Positions 6,451-40,377 are shown, counted from the stretch's first letter. The stretch is 64,000 nt of DNA from an uncultured Clostridia bacterium (GCA_944364445.1 CALVWC010000001.1:1575-65574); one strand, 5' to 3'. The notes: generated from the letters alone by a model not told the origin. Numbers and translations are program-made.

Positions 6451-6535
6451 TGGTGGGCAGGGATGGATTCGAACCATCGAAGACATAGTCGACGGATTTA
6501 CAGTCCGTTGCATTTGGCCGCTCTGCAACCTACCC
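6451..6535 (-). tRNA. tRNA-Tyr (GTA), long variable arm, CCA encoded
   Basis: Hand-folded cloverleaf. Acceptor GGGTAGG/CCTGCCC, anticodon loop CTGTAAA, T-loop TTCGAAT. Confidence 0.9.
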
Positions 6536-6538
6536 AAG

Positions 6539-6613
6539 TGGAGCTGGCGAAAGGAATCGAACCTTCAACCTGCTGATTACAAGTCAGCTGCTCTACCATT
6601 GAGCCACGCCAGC
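6539..6613 (-). tRNA. tRNA-Thr (TGT), CCA encoded
   Basis: Hand-folded. GCTGGCG acceptor, D arm GCTC/GAGC, anticodon loop CTTGTAA, T-loop TTCGATT. Confidence 0.9.
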
Positions 6614-6699
6614 AAACAATTTTTGACAATTAATCTTAATTTATATATTTTAATTAATATATTATTATATACAACTAATTAAGACCATGAAAATTGTTT

Positions 6700-7144
6700 C
6701 TCACACAAAGACTTTCTTGCATACATAAATATGCTGGTGCCCTAAGGTGGACACGACACTACGCTCGAAATTGAACTTTTCCATTCCGCATTTTGCTTTC
6801 GCAAATTGCTTCCATTTCAAATTCAACTTCTCGCTTTTTCCCAAAAATTTTTTAAATTTTCGGGAACCCTTTCTTGTGAAAATCCCTGTGTCTACTTCAT
6901 TTCACACAAAGACTTTCTTGCATATATAAATATGCTGGTGCCCTAAGGTGGAATCGAACCACCGACACTACGCTCGAAATTGAACTTTTCCATTCCGCAT
7001 TTTGCTTTCGCAAATTGCTTCCATTTCAAATTCAACTTCTCGCTTTTTCCCAAAAATTTTTTAAATTTTCGGGAACCCTTTCTTGTGAAAATCCCTGTGT
7101 CTACTTCATTTCACACAAAGACTTTCTTGCATATATAAATATGC
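6700..7144. repeat. Tandem repeat, 2 units (201 and 209 bp) plus the flank of the true tRNA-Phe; each unit carries the 3' part of tRNA-Phe
   Basis: The units starting near 6701 and 6902 are identical by eye, apart from an 8-nt shorter, slightly diverged T-arm copy in the first unit and one C/T difference (6723 vs 6924) in the shared leader. Each unit contains TGGTGCCCTAAGGTGGAATCGAACCACCGACAC, the reverse complement of the tRNA-Phe 3' part. Each also contains an inverted TGAAAATCCCTGTGTC segment. Confidence 0.9.
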
Positions 7145-7220
7145 TGGTGCCCTAAGGTGGAATCGAACCACCGACACAGGGATTTTCAGTCCCTTGCTCT
7201 ACCGACTGAGCTATCAGGGC
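7145..7220 (-). tRNA. tRNA-Phe (GAA), CCA encoded
   Basis: Hand-folded. GCCCTGA acceptor, GCTC/GAGC D stem, anticodon loop CTGAAAA, T-loop TTCGATT. Confidence 0.9.
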
Positions 7221-7223
7221 AAA

Positions 7224-7300
7224 TGGCGACTCGGATGGGGCTCGAACCCACGACCTCTAGCGTGACAGGCTAGCGTTCTAACCAACTGAACTACCGAGCC
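7224..7300 (-). tRNA. tRNA-Asp (GTC), CCA encoded
   Basis: Hand-folded. GGCTCGG acceptor, anticodon loop CTGTCAC, T-loop TTCGAGC. Confidence 0.9.
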
Positions 7301-7371
7301 AAAACTGACATCTATTTGATTTTACCATAATTAAAAAAATATTGCAAGCAAAATGGCATATTTTTTTAATT

Positions 7372-7448
7372 TGGTGGGCCTTCACGGACTCGAACCGCGG
7401 ACCAACCGGTTATGAGCCGGTCGCTCTAACCAACTGAGCTAAAGGCCC
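7372..7448 (-). tRNA. tRNA with CAT anticodon (elongator Met, or Ile2 if lysidine-modified), CCA encoded
   Basis: Hand-folded. GGGCCTT acceptor, anticodon loop CTCATAA. It lacks the three consecutive GC pairs in the anticodon stem expected of an initiator. Confidence 0.85.
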
Positions 7449-7468
7449 AATCAAACTGCAAGCACTGC

Positions 7469-7544
7469 TGGTCGGGGTGGAGGGTCTCGAACCCCCGACC
7501 TCACGGTCCCAAACCGCGCGCTCTACCAACTGAGCCACACCCCG
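7469..7544 (-). tRNA. tRNA-Pro (TGG), CCA encoded
   Basis: Hand-folded. CGGGGTG acceptor, anticodon loop TTTGGGA, T-loop TTCGAGA. Confidence 0.9.
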
Positions 7545-33388: not shown

Positions 33389-35473
33389 TTATGCTTTTTT
33401 GCGTTGACCGATGATAGTCTCAGCAATATTTCTTGGAACTTCTGAATATTTCAAGAATTCCATTGTGAAGTTTCCACGGCCTTGTGTTTGAGAACGAAGG
33501 TCTGTGGCATAGCCGAACATTTCGCCAAGAGGCACTTCAGCATTAACAACTTGCACGCCTGGGCGGGTTTCATTACCCGTTAAAATTCCACGACGAGAAG
33601 TGATGTTGCCCATAACTGTTCCCAAATAATCGTCTGGCACTTCCACTTGCACCTTCATGATAGGCTCAAGAAGGCATGGGTCTGCCTTAAGGCAAGCATC
33701 CTTAAATGCCATGGAACCAGCGATTTTGAACGCCATTTCAGACGAGTCGACTTCGTGATAAGAACCATCGAGAAGTGTCACTTTATAGTCAACAACTTCA
33801 TATCCAGCCAAAACGCCGTTTTTAGCCGCTTCTTTAATTCCGTTGAACACTGGTTGGATGTATTCTTTTGGAATGGAGCCACCAACTGTTTTGTCGATAA
33901 ATCTTTCAGCGTCCTCAAGATGTGTTCCTGCTGGAACCGGCTCGATGTCGATAACGCAGTGACCATATTGACCTTTACCACCGCTTTGACGAACAAACTT
34001 ACCTTCTGCATGAGCAGGTTTTTTGATTGTTTCCTTATATGCAACTTGTGGCGCGCCTACATTCGCTTCCACTTTAAATTCACGAAGGAGTCTGTCAACA
34101 ATAATTTCAAGGTGAAGTTCGCCCATACCAGCAATGATTGTTTGACCAGTTTCTTGGTCGGTGTAAGTTTTGAAAGTTGGGTCTTCTTCTGCAAGTTTAA
34201 CAAGTGCAAGCACCATTTTTTCTTGCATAAGTTTGGTTTTTGGCTCAATTGCCACCCTGATAACTGGGTCAGGGAAATCCATACTTTCAAGTTGGATTGG
34301 GTGCTTTTCGTCGCAAAGAGTTTCGCCTGTTATGGTGTCTTTAAGTCCAACAATAGCAGCGATGTCACCTGCACCCACCTCTTTAATTTCTTCTCTTTGA
34401 TTTGCGTGCATTCTGATGAGTCTTCCCACTCTTTCCTTTTCGCCCTTATTGGAGTTATAAACATAACTTCCAGCAACAAGTTTTCCAGAATAAACACGGA
34501 AGAAGGCAAGACGACCAACAAATGGGTCTGTCATAATTTTGAAAGCAAGCCCAGCAAATGGAGCATCCTCGCTTGGCGCTCTTGTTTCTTTTTCTCCAGT
34601 TTCTGGATTAACACCTTCGATGTGGTCGATGTCAAGTGGAGATGGAAGATATTCAACCATAGCATCCAAAAGCATCTGCACACCCTTATTCTTATAGGAC
34701 GAACCGCAAAGAACAGGTGTAAGTTTTCTGGAAATTGTGGCATTTCTGATTGCCTTTTTAAGTTCCTCAAGAGAGATTTCCTCGCCGTCGAAATACTTAG
34801 CAAGAAGTGCGTCATCAGTTTCCACAATTTTTTCGATGATCTCGTCGTGAAGTTTTTGAGCGTCCGCTTTATATTCTTCTGGAATATCTGTCACATCAAA
34901 AACTTTTCCAAGGTCATCTTCATAAATTTCCGCTTTCATTGTTAAAATGTCAATAATTCCGCTGAAAGTGTCAGCCGAGCCGATTGGCATTTGAATTGGA
35001 AGTGGATTTGTTTTAAGTCTATCTTCAATACTCTTCACACAGCCGAAAAAGTCTGCTGCATCTCTGTCCATTTTGTTGACATAGATGATTGTTGGAACTT
35101 TGTATTTTTGAGATTGACGCCAAACAGTTTCAGTTTGTGGTTGCACCTTATCGCGAGCGGATAAAACAAGCACAGCGCCGTCCAAAACCTTCAAAGAACG
35201 CTCAACTTCCACAGTGAAGTCAACGTGTCCCGGTGTGTCGATAATGTTGATTTTATGGTTTTTCCAATAGCAAGTTGTGCAGGCAGAAGTGATAGTAATT
35301 CCTCTTTCTTGCTCTTGTGCCATCCAGTCCATTGTGGCTTCGCCGTCATGAACTTCGCCGATTTTGTGACTTTTACCAGTGTAGAAAAGAATTCTTTCGG
35401 TGGTTGTGGTCTTACCAGCATCAATATGCGCCATGATACCAATATTCCTAACCATATTTAAATCGGTAGCCAT
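33389..35473 (-). CDS. fusA: Elongation factor G
   Basis: [32 protein letters not shown]. 694 aa. Confidence 0.98.
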
Positions 35474-35485
35474 TTTTTTCTCCTT

Positions 35486-35869
35486 TTACTTAGTTTTTTC
35501 ATTATGATTATTTTCATTTGAATTTGAAAAACTGTTTAAAATAACATTTTTTTCGTTATCTAAATATTTTTCCAAACCTTTTTTATACTCTTCGCCAAAT
35601 TTTTCATAAAGCGCGCTTCTCCACATATTGATTGTGCGCCTCTGTAAAGGAAGAACTCTGCTGTGGCAATTATGAAAAGCGGTGTTAGAAACAGCATTAA
35701 TATCAAAATCCTTTAGATATGCAACAAATGGTTGTTGGTCATCTTGGTTTATTTTCATGGTTAATTCCACACTTTTTGTGCCAACTCCATTTAGTTCCAC
35801 AATCATTTTTCCATAACGATCTTGAAATATTTTTGTGATATCTTCCTTTGATAACTTTTCAATGAACAT
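35486..35869 (-). CDS. Hypothetical 127-aa protein inserted between rpsG and fusA
   Basis: AAGGAGGAAGTT-ATG RBS and start at 35869. The stop lies 13 nt before the fusA RBS and start. No motif recognised. Confidence 0.6.
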   Translation of the reverse strand: MFIEKLSKEDITKIFQDRYGKMIVELNGVGTKSVELTMKINQDDQQPFVAYLKDFDINAVSNTAFHNCHSRVLPLQRRTINMWRSALYEKFGEEYKKGLEKYLDNEKNVILNSFSNSNENNHNEKTK

Positions 35870-36013
35870 AACTTCCTCCTTCATCTTTCGCGTTCTTGTT
35901 TTGGATGTTTATGCGCGTATAACTTTTTCAAGTTTATAAGAGCATATTCTTCATCCTTAATAGTTTTTTGGCTATTTGGTCGAGTTTTAAACATTTCGCA
36001 TTTTTTCATGAAA

Positions 36014-36487
36014 TTACCACTTATAGTGAGCAAATGCTTTGTTTGCTTCAGCCATTCTGTGCATTTCATCACGCTTTTTAATGGAAGCACCTGTGTTATT
36101 ATATGCATCCATAAGTTCGCCTGCAAGTTTAGCATCCATATTTCTTTCGCCAGTTCTCTTTCTTGCGTTGTTCACAATCCAACGAATAGCAAGTGTTTGG
36201 CGTCTTTCTGGCCTAATTTCCATTGGCACTTGGTATGTTGCACCGCCCACTCTGCGACCTTTTGTTTCAAGCATAGGCTTAACATTTTCAATCGCGGTCA
36301 AGCAAACATCAAGAGGTTCCAAACTTGTTTTTTCTTTAATAATGTCAAACGAACCATAAACAATTCTTTGTGCAAGTCCTTTTTTACCACTCAACATAAC
36401 TTGGTTTGTTAACTTTGTGACAACCTTGTTGTTATAGATTGGATCTGGTAAAACATCTTTCTTTGTCGCACATTTTCTTCTTGGCAT
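36014..36487 (-). CDS. rpsG: 30S ribosomal protein S7
   Basis: [19 protein letters not shown]... and C-terminal [10 protein letters not shown]. Confidence 0.97.
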
Positions 36488-36521
36488 TGGTTTTACTCCT
36501 TTTATCTAAATTTTGTTTTTC

Positions 36522-36896
36522 TTACTTCTTAGGTCTTTTTGCGCCATACTTAGAACGGCTTTGTTTTCTGTTGGCAACACCAGCAGTATCCAAAGTGCCT
36601 CTAACAATGTGATAACGCACACCCGGCAAATCTTTAACACGTCCGCCACGAACAAGCACAACACTGTGCTCTTGGAGGTTGTGTCCTACGCCTGGGATAT
36701 AGCAAGTTCCTTCTTGACCGTTGGAAAGTTTAACTCTGGCAATCTTACGAAGAGCGGAGTTAGGCTTTTTAGGTGTTGCAGTTCTAACAGACAAACAAAC
36801 ACCGCGCTTTTGAGGGCACTCTTCAAGAAGTGGTGCTTTTTTCTTTTTCTCGAAAGTTTTGCGACCTTTTCTCACTAATTGGTTAAATGTAGGCAT
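36522..36896 (-). CDS. rpsL: 30S ribosomal protein S12
   Basis: [13 protein letters not shown]...[10 protein letters not shown]...[14 protein letters not shown]. Confidence 0.97.
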
Positions 36897-36950
36897 TTTA
36901 TTCTCCTTTTAGTTCAAATTTTCAGTTTTAAATCGTGAATTGGATTTGTC

Positions 36951-37151
36951 AAAAAAAAGACGCGTTTCCGCGTCAAAAAAATATGCTTTATTTGGCAAAC
37001 ATGAACAACACAATCGCAAAGCGACTTTGAAGAGAACTTCAAATCGGTGAAAGCAACCGCCCACCTGTTGTTTGTTTATGCTTAAACTTAAGCATATGTT
37101 TCCGACAACGAAACATGGCTATATTATATATAAAAAGAAAAGCATTGTCAA
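36951..37151 (-). ncRNA. Promoter-to-terminator structured RNA (about 165 nt): candidate sRNA or attenuator-type leader of the rpsL operon
   Basis: On the minus strand: TTGACA (37151-37146), 17 nt, TATAAT (37128-37123). Several hand-foldable helices, e.g. ATGTTTC/GAAACAT, ATGCTTA/TAAGCAT, TTTGAAG/CTTCAAA and AAACAAACAACA with TGTTGTTCATGTTT. Terminator GACGCGGAAACGCGTC (36959-36974) plus U8. Confidence 0.45.
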
Positions 37152-37229
37152 GTGTTTTTGCTCTTCTTTTCAAAATTTATTGAAAAATCTTTGAATAAAA
37201 GAAAAAGAGCGTTCATAACGCCCTTTCAA

Positions 37230-37883
37230 TTATTTTCCTGCCATTTGTTTTGCAACTTCTTCTGCCAAATTGTCGTGTCTTTTCTCTAAGCCCTCGCCAA
37301 GTTCATAACGAGTGAATCTTCTGATAGAGATTTTTTCGCCAATTTTTAAAGTTGCTTCTGTTAAAATATCCTTAATCGTTTTACTGCTGTCTTTAACGAA
37401 TGGTTGGTTAAGAAGGCAGAAATCTTCATAATACTTTTTAATTCTTCCCTCAATCATTCTGTCAACAATGTTTGCTGGTTTACCCTCGTTAAGCGCTTGA
37501 ACACGCAAAATTTCCTTTTCATTTTCAAGTTCTTGTGGGTCAACTTCCGCCTCGCTGACATATTTTGGATTTGCAGCAGCAATTTGCATAGCAATATCTT
37601 TAACTAAGTTTTGGAAATCAGCACTCTTTGCCACGAAATCGGTTTCGCAGTTAACTTCCACCAAAACGCCAATCTTTCCGCCCATGTGGATGTAAGAAGA
37701 AACAACACCTTCGGAAGCAATTCTTCCTTGTTTCTTATCAACCGCCTTAAGTCCTCTTTCTCTTAAAAGCACAATGGCTTTTTCAAAATCACCATTAGCA
37801 TCAGTGAGTGCCTTTTTGCACTCCATCATGCCAACACCTGTTTGTTGTCTTAATTTTGCAACATCTTGTGCAGTAAAACTCAT
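37230..37883 (-). CDS. tsf: Elongation factor Ts (short form)
   Basis: [22 protein letters not shown]-like N-terminus. Follows rpsB. Confidence 0.95.
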
Positions 37884-37907
37884 AATTTTATCTCCTTTTA
37901 AAAATAA

Positions 37908-38789
37908 TTATTCTGCGTCTTTCTTTTCTTCAACCTTTTCGGTTTTTTCCACTTTTTCTTTCTTCACAGCAGGTTTCTTTCTTGGTTTTTTGTTGGTTTT
38001 CTTAACCTCTTCGCCAGCCTCAGCAAGTTCTAAACTTGGCTTTGCCTCAGTGAGTAAACTTTCAAGGTCAACTTGTTCATCCTCGCCCTCTTCTTTCTTC
38101 ATGGAAACACCTTCGCGTGCTTCAATAACAGCGTCAGCCATAGCACTTGCGATAAGTTTAACGGAACGAATAGCATCGTCGTTTCCAGGAATAACAACTG
38201 TCACATTTGATGGATCGCAGTTGGTGTCAACAAGTGAAACAACAGGAATGTTTAAGATGTTTGCTTCATGAACGCAAATTTTTTCGTTTGTTGGGTCAAC
38301 CACGAAAAGTGCGCCAGGAAGTTCACGCATCTCTTTAATTCCGCCTAAATTCTTTTCAAGTTTATCTCTTTCTTGCTTTAAAAGAGCAACCTCTTTCTTT
38401 GGAAGAAGGTCAAATTCTCCCACCTTTTCCATTTGATTAAGTTTGTTCAATCTTTCCACTCTGTTTCTGATGGTTTTGAAGTTTGTTAAAGTTCCACCAA
38501 GCCAACGAGTGTTGATATAGAACATTCCACATCTTTCGGCTTCTTCTTTAATAGCCTCTTGTGCTTGTTTCTTTGTTCCCACAAAGAGAATGTTTTTGCC
38601 AGAAGCAACAACATCGCGAACAAAATTATATGCTTTGTCGATTTGCTCCTGTGTCACTTCAAGATTTAAAATGTGAATATCATTTCTGGCAGTGAAAATG
38701 TATTGCTTCATTTTTGGGTTCCACTTTCTTGTTTGATGACCGAAGTGAACGCCCGCTTCAAGAAGTTGTTTCATTGAAATAACTGACAT
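37908..38789 (-). CDS. rpsB: 30S ribosomal protein S2 with a K/E-rich C-terminal extension
   Basis: [20 protein letters not shown]-terminus. The roughly 60-aa charged tail is unusual but in frame. Confidence 0.95.
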
Positions 38790-38971
38790 AATTTTTTACC
38801 TCCCTTGTTTTTGTCCTTCCCACAAACATCAACTTTTTAAGTCAACCCAAGATCACACTTTTACCTGCAAACAAATTCAAAATTAAAAAACAAAAAACAA
38901 AAGTTTGCAAGCGTTCAGGCAACCGACCTAAAAATACGCCCATGGTGCTTATTTGTCTCAATGACACAGCG

Positions 38972-39000
38972 ATTATATCATATAAAAAAAAATATTGCAA
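38972..39000 (-). promoter_or_regulatory. Promoter of rpsB-tsf (implies a 5' UTR of about 175 nt)
   Basis: On the minus strand: TTGCAA (39000-38995), 17 nt, TATAAT (38977-38972). Confidence 0.65.
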
Positions 39001-39028
39001 GCGTTTTACGCAAATTTATTTTTTTCTA

Positions 39029-39057
39029 TTGACTTTTATCTTTCAAATTGTTAAAAT
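39029..39057 (+). promoter_or_regulatory. Divergent promoter of the 39085 ORF
   Basis: TTGACT (39029-39034), 17 nt, TAAAAT (39052-39057). Confidence 0.65.
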
Positions 39058-39084
39058 TCATATACTTAAATGTTGGAGGTAAAA

Positions 39085-39888
39085 ATGACCGTTTTTGAAT
39101 TATACGAAAAAGACTTATATATTCCATATAAAAACCTATTAAATGTTGAACTAACCTATGAAATTTTGTGTAAGCAAATTGAATATGCTAAAAAACAAGA
39201 AATAATCAATGATGTTGAAGTGCGAGGACTTTTAAAATTTGTGCAAGAAAAGCTTAATGGGCTTTTAAACAAATATTCAGTGGAAAGTGAAGATTGCAAA
39301 GTGACAGAAAAGTTTAATGACCACAGCATTATTCAAGAAATCTTCTCTTCTCAACAAAACTATGGCACAATTTGCGACAAACTTATGAAAATTAAAGCAA
39401 ATGTTTTAGACAACAAAACAGCGCTTAAACCACTTAAAGAAGAAATCGCTAAATTCGATTGCCCTTTCAAAAAACTTGCGCCATACATTGAAAAAGAAAC
39501 AAAAAACGAATGGCTCTTTAAAAAAGAAGTGAATGGAAAAGTGAATGTTGGCAAAAAACAAGCGCCTGAAAGCGTGAAAGTTTTGTTGGTTTCAAAAAAT
39601 GGTTTTAAGATTAATGTTATAGAAAGAAGTTTATCTAATCTTAAAAACATAAACTACGAAAATTTTTCAAAGGTATATAAAGAAATCAACAATTTGTTTC
39701 TTGGATATTTCGACAGCAAAAAAATTCTTGAAGATGAAAACATCCCAGACATTGTTAAATTTGCCACCTATAAACGCATGAAAGAAACGCACCTGTCACC
39801 ACAAGTTTTAAAAAATCCACTCATTCACAGCACTTTCAAAAAAATTGTGAACGAAAACTTAAAAGTAAAAATTAAAAATCAAGTTTAA
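39085..39888 (+). CDS. Hypothetical protein (267 aa)
   Basis: GGAGGT RBS before the ATG at 39085. Terminator-like hairpin ATCAAG/CTTGAT plus a T-run overlaps the stop (about 39871-39897). No motif recognised. Confidence 0.6.
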   Translation: MTVFELYEKDLYIPYKNLLNVELTYEILCKQIEYAKKQEIINDVEVRGLLKFVQEKLNGLLNKYSVESEDCKVTEKFNDHSIIQEIFSSQQNYGTICDKLMKIKANVLDNKTALKPLKEEIAKFDCPFKKLAPYIEKETKNEWLFKKEVNGKVNVGKKQAPESVKVLLVSKNGFKINVIERSLSNLKNINYENFSKVYKEINNLFLGYFDSKKILEDENIPDIVKFATYKRMKETHLSPQVLKNPLIHSTFKKIVNENLKVKIKNQV

Positions 39889-39918
39889 CGCTTGATTTTT
39901 TTCTATTGTATATGAAAT

Positions 39919-40377
39919 TTATTTATGATAACTTACGCCGTTTAAAATTGTGAAAGCGCGATATATTTGCTCTAAAAGCATAATGCGAAAAAGATTATGC
40001 GGAAAGGTCATTTTGGAAAAGGAAATTTTCATTTGACAGGCGTTTTTAACTTTTTCACTAACACCATACGAGCCACCTATCACAAAGGTTATTTTGGAAT
40101 TTGTGAGGGCAAGTTTTTCCAGTCTGTTTGCAAACTCTTCGCTAGACAAATTTTCTCCGCCCAAGTCACACAAAATGTTGTAAGAGGAAAGATTTTTAAT
40201 AATCTCCTCGCCTTCTTTTTCTTTAATAAGCATTAAATTAACAAGTTTGTTTTGCTCTTTAAGTTCAATGACATTAACCTTAGCAAACTTTGAAAGCCGT
40301 TTAAGATATTCTTTCTCCGCGTCCTGAGAAAATTTTTCTTTTAAATTTCCAACACAAACAACACTGATATTCAGCAT
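39919..40377 (-). CDS. rlmH: 23S rRNA (pseudouridine1915-N3)-methyltransferase
   Basis: SPOUT C-terminus FVIGGSYGVS...MTFPHNLFRIMLLEQIYRAF. Confidence 0.9.
   Translation of the reverse strand: MLNISVVCVGNLKEKFSQDAEKEYLKRLSKFAKVNVIELKEQNKLVNLMLIKEKEGEEIIKNLSSYNILCDLGGENLSSEEFANRLEKLALTNSKITFVIGGSYGVSEKVKNACQMKISFSKMTFPHNLFRIMLLEQIYRAFTILNGVSYHK

Follow-up and report, generated by a model that had tools for sequence, protein, structure and literature searches.

The window analysed here, a stretch of 64,000 nt from an uncultured Clostridia bacterium, carries on its minus strand a 333-nt spacer between tsf and rpsL, the first gene of an rpsL-rpsG-ORF132-fusA-tuf operon. A consensus promoter and an intrinsic terminator lie in this spacer and enclose a structured RNA. 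The six named genes were identified by NCBIfam, and the features are as follows.

38789-37908, minus strand: rpsB
37883-37230, minus strand: tsf in a short 217-aa form, its stop at 37230
37227-37203, minus strand: terminator-like hairpin behind tsf, an 11-pair stem and then a T-rich tail
37151-37123, minus strand: promoter matching at 12/12 positions, TTGACA (37151-37146), 17-nt spacer, TATAAT (37128-37123)
36974-36951, minus strand: intrinsic terminator GACGCG-GAAA-CGCGUC followed by U8 (GACGCGGAAACGCGUC plus U8)
36909-36903, minus strand: ribosome-binding site AAAGGAG
36896-36522, minus strand: rpsL
36487-36014, minus strand: rpsG
35884-35486, minus strand: 132-aa ORF in the rpsG-fusA gap, with no Pfam or NCBIfam match
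35473-33389, minus strand: fusA
33289-32087, minus strand: tuf

The promoter is the sole 12/12 sigma-70 match in 35000-40000 and lies exactly where a sequence-only reading of this DNA had put it. The same reading had described a terminator-like hairpin past the tsf stop, which was found, and a hairpin plus U8 at about 55 nt before rpsL, which proved to end 54 nt from the rpsL ATG at 36896. The hairpin behind tsf closes the rpsB-tsf unit; it is outside the leader RNA and insulates this RNA from upstream transcription. Here ‘leader’ refers to the RNA of ~165-166 nt on the minus strand between the promoter and the terminator, whose transcription would start near 37116 as judged from the sequence. 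The terminator hairpin (GACGCGGAAACGCGTC, 36974-36959) has a 6-bp stem, five of the pairs being G-C, and a GAAA loop, and is followed by T8 (36958-36951), that is, U8 in the RNA. Because a promoter scan found no promoter-like site from the terminator to rpsL, the essential genes downstream would depend on read-through.

Around the spacer, S2 has 293 aa with a C-terminal extension past its 225-position core model, and the short EF-Ts matches its model in two stretches. A 272-aa ORF at 39070-39888 on the plus strand, divergent from rpsB and without a Pfam or NCBIfam family, adjoins rpsB also in two relatives, L088 and L090.

Coding capacity was considered for the leader itself. The sequence-only reading had seen no ORF with a ribosome-binding site inside it; mechanical ORF calling gives three ORFs of 42-51 aa that overlap it, and none has a frame conserved in relatives. 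No conserved reading frame was found among 29 variants: counted from the invariant GCAUAAACA anchor, the frame is 0, 1 or 2, and candidate leader ORFs range from 15 to 84 aa, one variant having no such ORF. The leader is thus not a leader-peptide system, and a leader-peptide attenuator was ruled out on the lack of a conserved short ORF among the 29 variants.

A search of the whole window with Rfam 15 at gathering score returned six tRNAs only, which form a cluster at 6454-7544 on the minus strand, and nothing on the leader RNA. When the limit was relaxed to E <= 10 for 36700-37400, no match exceeded 24 bits, where the cut-offs are 43-242 bits, and most of these sub-threshold matches fall on the tsf terminator; among them is L20_leader, with 20 bits against a cut-off of 58.7 bits, which likewise lies on the tsf terminator rather than on the leader RNA. 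Thirteen homologous loci gave 0 matches. The families rpsL_psuedo and rpsL_ricks, the Rfam names for rpsL leaders, did not reach their gathering thresholds, nor did any other Rfam 15 family, and none of the Rfam searches produced a match to a known riboswitch or T-box model. The scan, which the sequence-only reading had proposed, therefore gave only chance-level matches on the window and the 13 homologous loci, in line with the view taken there that the RNA belongs to no known family.

Relatives and linkage to rpsL

Relatives were collected in several ways. A one-genome-per-species scan with S12 yielded 80 loci, of which just two were close, both from uncultured Clostridia metagenome-assembled genomes with S12 identity of 94%, and both have the same RNA and the same perfect promoter. 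More relatives came from contigs encoding identical S12 or S12 variants of 87-96% identity, and from one metagenome scan with the conserved block GCATAAACAAACRRCARGTG, where ten matches without rpsL were chance matches. The first tally was 41 distinct leaders, and later S12 look-ups added further members. One locus, L006, with a CGTTGTCG match upstream of rpsL, proved unrelated.

In 30 of the 41 distinct leaders, a perfect TTGACA-17-TATAAT promoter is found at the same distance to the first hairpin; the remaining ones mostly have 11/12 promoter matches or are truncated. A single promoter or terminator match is weak alone, but an identical promoter in 30/41 homologous leaders is beyond chance.

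More than 40 distinct metagenomic sequences have the RNA directly upstream of rpsL and always co-oriented with it. Its upstream neighbour changes among relatives (tsf, ligA with a small ORF, hflX, a sigma-70 factor, a giant surface protein or LRR proteins), whereas the downstream genes are always rpsL-rpsG-fusA. Since the upstream gene varies while rpsL stays, the RNA belongs to rpsL, and its adjacency to tsf, by which the sequence-only reading had located it, is incidental.

A covariance model, whose construction is given below, scores 112 bits on the window (36997-37116) and 79-115 bits on other members. At E <= 1 it found nothing in 78 other-species loci (S12 70-80% identical), which include Christensenellales, Lachnospiraceae, Oscillospiraceae and Ruminococcus, so that the RNA is not a general element of Clostridia or Firmicutes. 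The score drops to 26.7 bits for a diverged form (L100-L103, S12 87% identical), which has a P1-like hairpin nested in P2. The family is confined to a narrow uncultured Clostridia lineage abundant in gut metagenomes.

Within this clade the spacer between rpsG and fusA ranges from 50 to ~570 nt and holds lineage-specific small ORFs (for example L094:3371-3873, L100:3424-3853 and L148:2559-3130); in L094 and L100 it has internal repeat units resembling small inserted repeat elements. The 132-aa ORF of the window is kept only in the closest relatives, L088 (100% identity), L090 (91%) and L120 (76%), and is absent from all other clade members. The leader covariance model detects no second copy in the rpsG-fusA spacers.

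Conserved structure of the leader

A 174-nt stretch containing the leader has an MFE of -52.9 kcal/mol (z = -4.2), with 0/200 shuffles as good. The sequence-only reading had folded at least five helices by hand; the comparison of relatives gives six helices and the terminator, backed by covariation. Percentages below are those of alignment cells that pair.

37096-37116, minus strand: P1 hairpin AUGUUUC-GUUGUCG-GAAACAU, 6/6 pairs compensatory, 99.4% of cells
37078-37095, minus strand: P2 hairpin AUGCUU-AAGUUU-AAGCAU, 89.7% of cells, little covariation
37066-37077, minus strand: P3 5′ strand AAACAAACAACA, closing helix of a four-way junction
37046-37065, minus strand: P4 hairpin GGUGG...UUUCACC, first pair changed from G-C to A-U in 8/29 sequences
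37026-37043, minus strand: P5 hairpin UUUGAAG-UUCU-CUUCAAA, 6/6 pairs compensatory, 98.9% of cells
37013-37025, minus strand: P6 hairpin GUCGC-UUU-GCGAU, 4/5 pairs compensatory, 97.9% of cells
36997-37010, minus strand: P3 3′ strand UGUUGUU-CA-UGUUU, with a conserved 2-nt bulge C(A/G)

P1 has 6-7 bp, and its loop GUUGUCG (37109-37103) is nearly invariant across the family. P3 has 12 pairs that are 100% paired, 10 of them invariant and one showing an A-U to G-C switch, and the P3 5′ strand with the preceding GCAU makes up the most conserved sequence block. An invariant junction GA (37045-37044) precedes P5, and a nearly invariant G-U pair forms the base of P6. Between the P3 strands every variant has exactly three hairpins in a segment of 54 to ~250 nt; P4-P6 differ completely in sequence and tolerate insertions of 50-200 nt, those in P4 being of variable length and bringing the P4-P6 segment to ~250 nt.

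The structure was recovered in two steps. RNAalifold on an unguided MAFFT alignment of 15 full cores gave P1, P3, P4, P5 and P6, with 16/31 pairs compensatory. The covariance model was made from that alignment and a hand-drawn structure, and was used to align 29 distinct real sequences. In the latter alignment, 97.7% of 1160 cells are standard pairs, and 20 of the 40 pairs changed on both sides, so that the comparison of related spacers suggested by the sequence-only reading did reveal compensatory change. The compensatory cells number 122, against 30 ± 6 in shuffles, none of which reaches the observed number (0/500). When the structures were slid by 1-3 columns, only 39-52% of cells remained paired. 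A separately built alignment of helix-proximal pairs agrees with the 29-sequence result, although it is biased towards the structure because a script optimised the register of P2 and of the boundary between P5 and P6; for P1, P5 and P6, the compensatory changes are independent of that choice.

P1, P5 and P6 thus covary freely, while P3, the GCAU, the P1 loop, the GA junction and the basal G-U of P6 are invariant or nearly so. Read from sequence comparison, this pattern of constraint points to sequence-specific recognition of the P2-P3 region, and an invariant P3, P1 loop and GA together with free P4-P6 is a pattern typical of a macromolecule-binding site.

Other readings of single parts were dropped. 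The stretch UGUUGUUCAUGUUU, which looks like a boxA, is the paired P3 3′ strand and includes a compensatory pair. The four-way junction resembles a tRNA cloverleaf, but the P6 loop is only UUU and there is thus no T-loop. Pairing of GACAAAUC with the GAUUUG junction was rejected as well, since the junction varies (GACCAG, GAUUCA and others) while GACAAAUC is constant.

Terminator, alternative pairing and candidate effectors

The 5′ arm of the terminator has a second possible partner in the leader, far upstream.

36988-36971, minus strand: proposed antiterminator 3′ half, AAGCAUAU + U7 + GACG, pairing with 37107-37090

The GACG end of this half is the 5′ arm of the terminator. Its counterpart UGUCGGAAACAUAUGCUU (37107-37090), consisting of the P1 loop, the P1 3′ arm and the P2 5′ strand, is complementary to it at 17/18 positions, the P2 5′ strand having 36988-36981 as its alternative partner. 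The overall MFE structure for the window includes the antiterminator pairing.

Each terminator-bearing variant was cut at the end of the terminator 5′ arm and folded, as a model of the decision point. Of the 20 distinct terminator-bearing leaders, 12 (this window included) have MFE structures with 18-22 cross pairs, 4 have 5-10 cross pairs, and 4 have none (class C, with large P2 insertions). The window has 19 cross pairs, which 0/100 shuffles reach, and across variants shuffled 3′ segments reach the observed number in 0-1 of 100 trials; all of these are mononucleotide shuffles. When the RNAs are folded at full length, the modular terminator-state energy is only 0.3-5 kcal/mol above the MFE, and there the antiterminator wins in three variants, one of them identical to the window. 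The two folds are thus of nearly equal energy.

Conservation was followed between classes. Terminators of differing sequence (GACGCG.., AUGGCACGAAA.., GCACGACAAC.., UGACACGG..) lie at the same place in most relatives; they are present in classes A-D, and the terminator of each class keeps complementarity to the P1 region, as a perfect 7-bp GUUGUCG/CGACAAC in class C. The AUGCUU/AAGCAU part changes between classes from AUAUGCUU/AAGCAUAU to A(G/A)UGCUU/AAGCAUU, and the long-range helix keeps pairing via U-A to A-U or G-U changes; in members without a terminator it becomes UCUUUUU/AAAAAGG. Support for the alternative helix from these sequences is real but thin, as the covariation of P2 and the long-range helix may amount to one or a few evolutionary events. 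That the antiterminator excludes the terminator is predicted thermodynamically, and the pairing is partly conserved.

We take the RNA to be the leader at the 5′ end of the str operon mRNA (rpsL-rpsG-fusA-tuf), and in the window it probably works as a cis-acting transcription attenuator; most likely, it decides whether transcription reads into the str operon. Of the two readings offered from the sequence alone, a terminator-controlled leader or an independent small RNA, the former is favoured by synteny with rpsL, by the antiterminator and by the terminator-less members described below. The proposed course is as follows. The consensus promoter would start the transcript, and P1, P2 and then the four-way junction P3-P6 would form at once. 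As long as P1 and P2 remain folded, the terminator at 36974-36951 would form and transcription would stop before rpsL. If instead the P1 loop, the P1 3′ arm and the P2 5′ strand pair with AAGCAUAU-U7-GACG, the terminator 5′ arm would be sequestered, resulting in read-through. The two outcomes would be mutually exclusive. By analogy with other ribosomal-protein leaders, an operon protein in excess over rRNA could bind the invariant P2-P3 region, lock P1 and P2 and favour termination, so that a switch of this kind would presumably exert negative feedback in vivo.

By the same analogy the effector is probably S7 or S12. S7 appears the more likely of the two, as a primary 16S binder and the str repressor of E. 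coli, and we hold this preference with less confidence than the attenuator itself; S12, another factor or a small ligand is possible. Nothing in the leader sequence appears to single out S7 or S12. In a local alignment of primary sequence with E. coli 16S, which is not from this lineage, the leader scored 19; 200 shuffles averaged 18.9, and 109 of them did no worse. Two resemblances, of UUAAAACUGAAA in the post-terminator block to 16S 903-915 and of ACAACAGGUGG to 16S ACAAGCGGUGG, were dropped because this alignment is no better than shuffles.

The failure to find rRNA mimicry, in primary-sequence alignment with E. coli 16S, would suit a riboswitch-like sensor of a small molecule or tRNA (e.g. 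a nucleotide or an alarmone tied to translation capacity) acting on the same terminator/antiterminator platform. So would the multi-helix junction with invariant junction nucleotides, the two-state platform with a terminator, and the presence of the GTPases EF-G and EF-Tu in the operon. However, the RNA is tied exclusively to one ribosomal-protein operon, whereas riboswitches normally serve metabolic or transport genes in several contexts, and its conservation is highest not in a junction pocket but in a long regular helix with a 2-nt bulge. Three arms accept very large insertions, the family has a narrow phylogenetic range, and there is neither a T-box-like specifier, nor a T-box bulge in the antiterminator, nor an Rfam riboswitch or T-box match. 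Such a sensor is therefore quite improbable.

Attenuation by ribosomal protein leaders is well known from the E. coli S10 leader with L4 and from the Firmicute L10, L13, L19, L20 and L21 leaders. These share with the leader here a structured RNA ending in an intrinsic terminator and a narrow phylogenetic range. They differ in that they regulate other operons, and none of their Rfam models matches the leader here; autogenous control by an operon protein is their mode of action and, by analogy, is only proposed here. To our knowledge, regulation of the str operon (S12, S7, EF-G and EF-Tu) outside Gammaproteobacteria is largely unknown, and the published rpsL leaders are simple ones whose effector has never been identified.

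Attenuators upstream of rpsL have been described as a recurrent, structurally diverse and multiform class, whose forms share no common sequence or structure feature (Naville & Gautheret 2010, PMC2965389), and S7 has been suggested as the effector of such leaders (PMC2965389). The kind of element is thus known (PMC2965389), and the family is not: the leader here is an uncatalogued family inside the known multiform rpsL-leader class. Like the described forms, it occupies the rpsL 5′ UTR at the head of rpsL-rpsG-fusA-tuf, has a terminator and a proposed antiterminator, is lineage-specific and has S7 as the suspected effector; the 5′ UTR position, the intrinsic terminator and a predicted alternative pairing were all found in the window. 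It is far more elaborate than the published forms, adding two 5′ hairpins, a covarying four-way junction and a conserved element after the terminator, and it occurs in uncultured gut Clostridia, whereas the described attenuators belong to other phylum-level groups.

In E. coli, S7 represses the str operon autogenously at the rpsL-rpsG spacer (PMC10931766), as the sequence-only reading had correctly stated. The operon and the presumed logic are the same, with a ribosomal protein in excess over rRNA repressing its own operon. However, the E. coli operator is intercistronic and acts on coupled translation, whereas the element here lies upstream of rpsL and ends in a terminator; it does not have the position of an E. 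coli-type S7 operator, and the rpsL-rpsG spacer of the window is just 34 nt (36521-36488).

The ‘Candidatus Pelagibacter’ rpsL motif of SAR11, in which a bulged stem leads into a junction of three stems (Meyer et al. 2009, PMC2704228), is likewise a conserved structured RNA directly upstream of rpsL and known mainly from metagenomes. It fails the terminator criteria and shares no sequence feature with rpsL attenuators (PMC2965389), whereas the leader here, from Clostridia, combines a four-way junction with two extra hairpins and a terminator. A survey that added 20 ribosomal leader candidates included none for S12 or S7 (PMC7247131).

The leader remains a candidate in uncultured organisms, and its class, ribosomal protein leader or attenuator, is well known. 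The family marks a gap in Rfam for abundant gut Clostridia, and offers dozens of diverged members, strong covariation and, in the invariant helix with its 2-nt bulge, a candidate binding site.

Members without a terminator and the post-terminator element

A subgroup, with members such as L094, L098, L134 and L146, has complete P1-P6 and no terminator-like site before rpsL. Their layout is a short GC hairpin and then (C/U)AGACAAAUC, with the ribosome-binding site 5-9 nt later. Because this subgroup exists, attenuation cannot be the only or the ancestral output of the family. As far as the sequences tell, translation or stability must be a further target of the family, or have been its original one. 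Since natural variants either have or lack a terminator, the family provides a substrate for the question of S7 or S12 and for the coupling of an aptamer to different expression platforms.

In terminator-bearing members, a conserved 5′ UTR follows the terminator.

36918-36950, minus strand: conserved post-terminator 5′ UTR GACAAAUCCAAUUCACGAUUUAAAACUGAAAAU

This block, GACAAAUCC-AAUUCAC-GAUUUAAAACUGAAAAU, is conserved near base for base in three classes. GACAA, in its 5′ half, is complementary to the P1 loop, and AAAUC/GAUUU forms a local hairpin, which is longer in some relatives. All terminator-bearing classes and the terminator-less group have the motif YGACAAA, placed after the terminator or the hairpin. 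The diverged form has GGUUGCGU as the loop and GCAAC in the 5′ arm of its last hairpin, a compensatory-looking change. A 6-bp match with G-U often arises by chance in ~100 nt, so only conservation argues for a function of this pairing.

The block opens with TTGACA or ATGACA, readable as a weak -35 element, and might thus supply rpsL with its own transcription. This would fit an independent small RNA gene, in which the RNA is a stable trans-acting product of ~166 nt, while rpsL has separate transcription or relies on leak-through; the perfect promoter with a GNRA-capped GC stem and U8 is a classic layout of such genes, and the RNA is highly structured (z = -4.2). However, the TTGACA-like block has no acceptable -10 and was not flagged in the promoter scan, and the terminator-less members run straight into the rpsL ribosome-binding site, leaving no room for a promoter; a second promoter was rejected on these grounds. 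In addition, the RNA is strictly syntenic and co-oriented with rpsL in all lineages despite rearranged upstream genes, and a conserved antiterminator would be purposeless in a free-standing small RNA. We therefore consider a separate small RNA gene very unlikely, while a terminated leader of the attenuator type may have a dual role and also act in trans.

The terminator-less members could also be taken to mean that the leader is a structured 5′ UTR without a switch (a stabiliser, a processing platform or a translation enhancer), with the terminator as a constitutively leaky brake. Expression from a consensus promoter may need damping, and YGACAAA next to the ribosome-binding site could, by pairing with the P1 loop that it complements, give the UTR a closed, protective fold. 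This leaves unexplained the conserved, near-isoenergetic pairing that sequesters the terminator 5′ arm, and also the strict invariance of P3 where other helices have fully diverged. We give a switchless 5′ UTR very little weight, and retain attenuation as the reading for the window.

It is unlikely, to a lesser degree than the readings rejected above, that the RNA is a new kind of sensor rather than another S7 operator. It could then be a riboswitch-like element reading a translation-linked metabolite or RNA. Alternatively, the leader could respond to a protein, its invariant P1 loop toggling between the terminator 5′ arm and the YGACAAA by the ribosome-binding site. If such a toggle exists, one aptamer would control termination as well as translation or stability, and the terminator-less subgroup would be its translation-only form.

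A translational switch in the terminator-less members, made by pairing of the P2 3′ strand with the rpsL start, was rejected, as this pairing is seen in L094 and is inconsistent in L098. In terminator-bearing classes, complementarity between the P2 3′ strand and the rpsL start is only 4 bp (GCAU/AUGC). In some terminator-less members, as in L094 (2334-2340 and 2501-2506), the P2 3′ strand AGGCAU perfectly complements the rpsL start AUGCCU, and the MFE structure pairs both.
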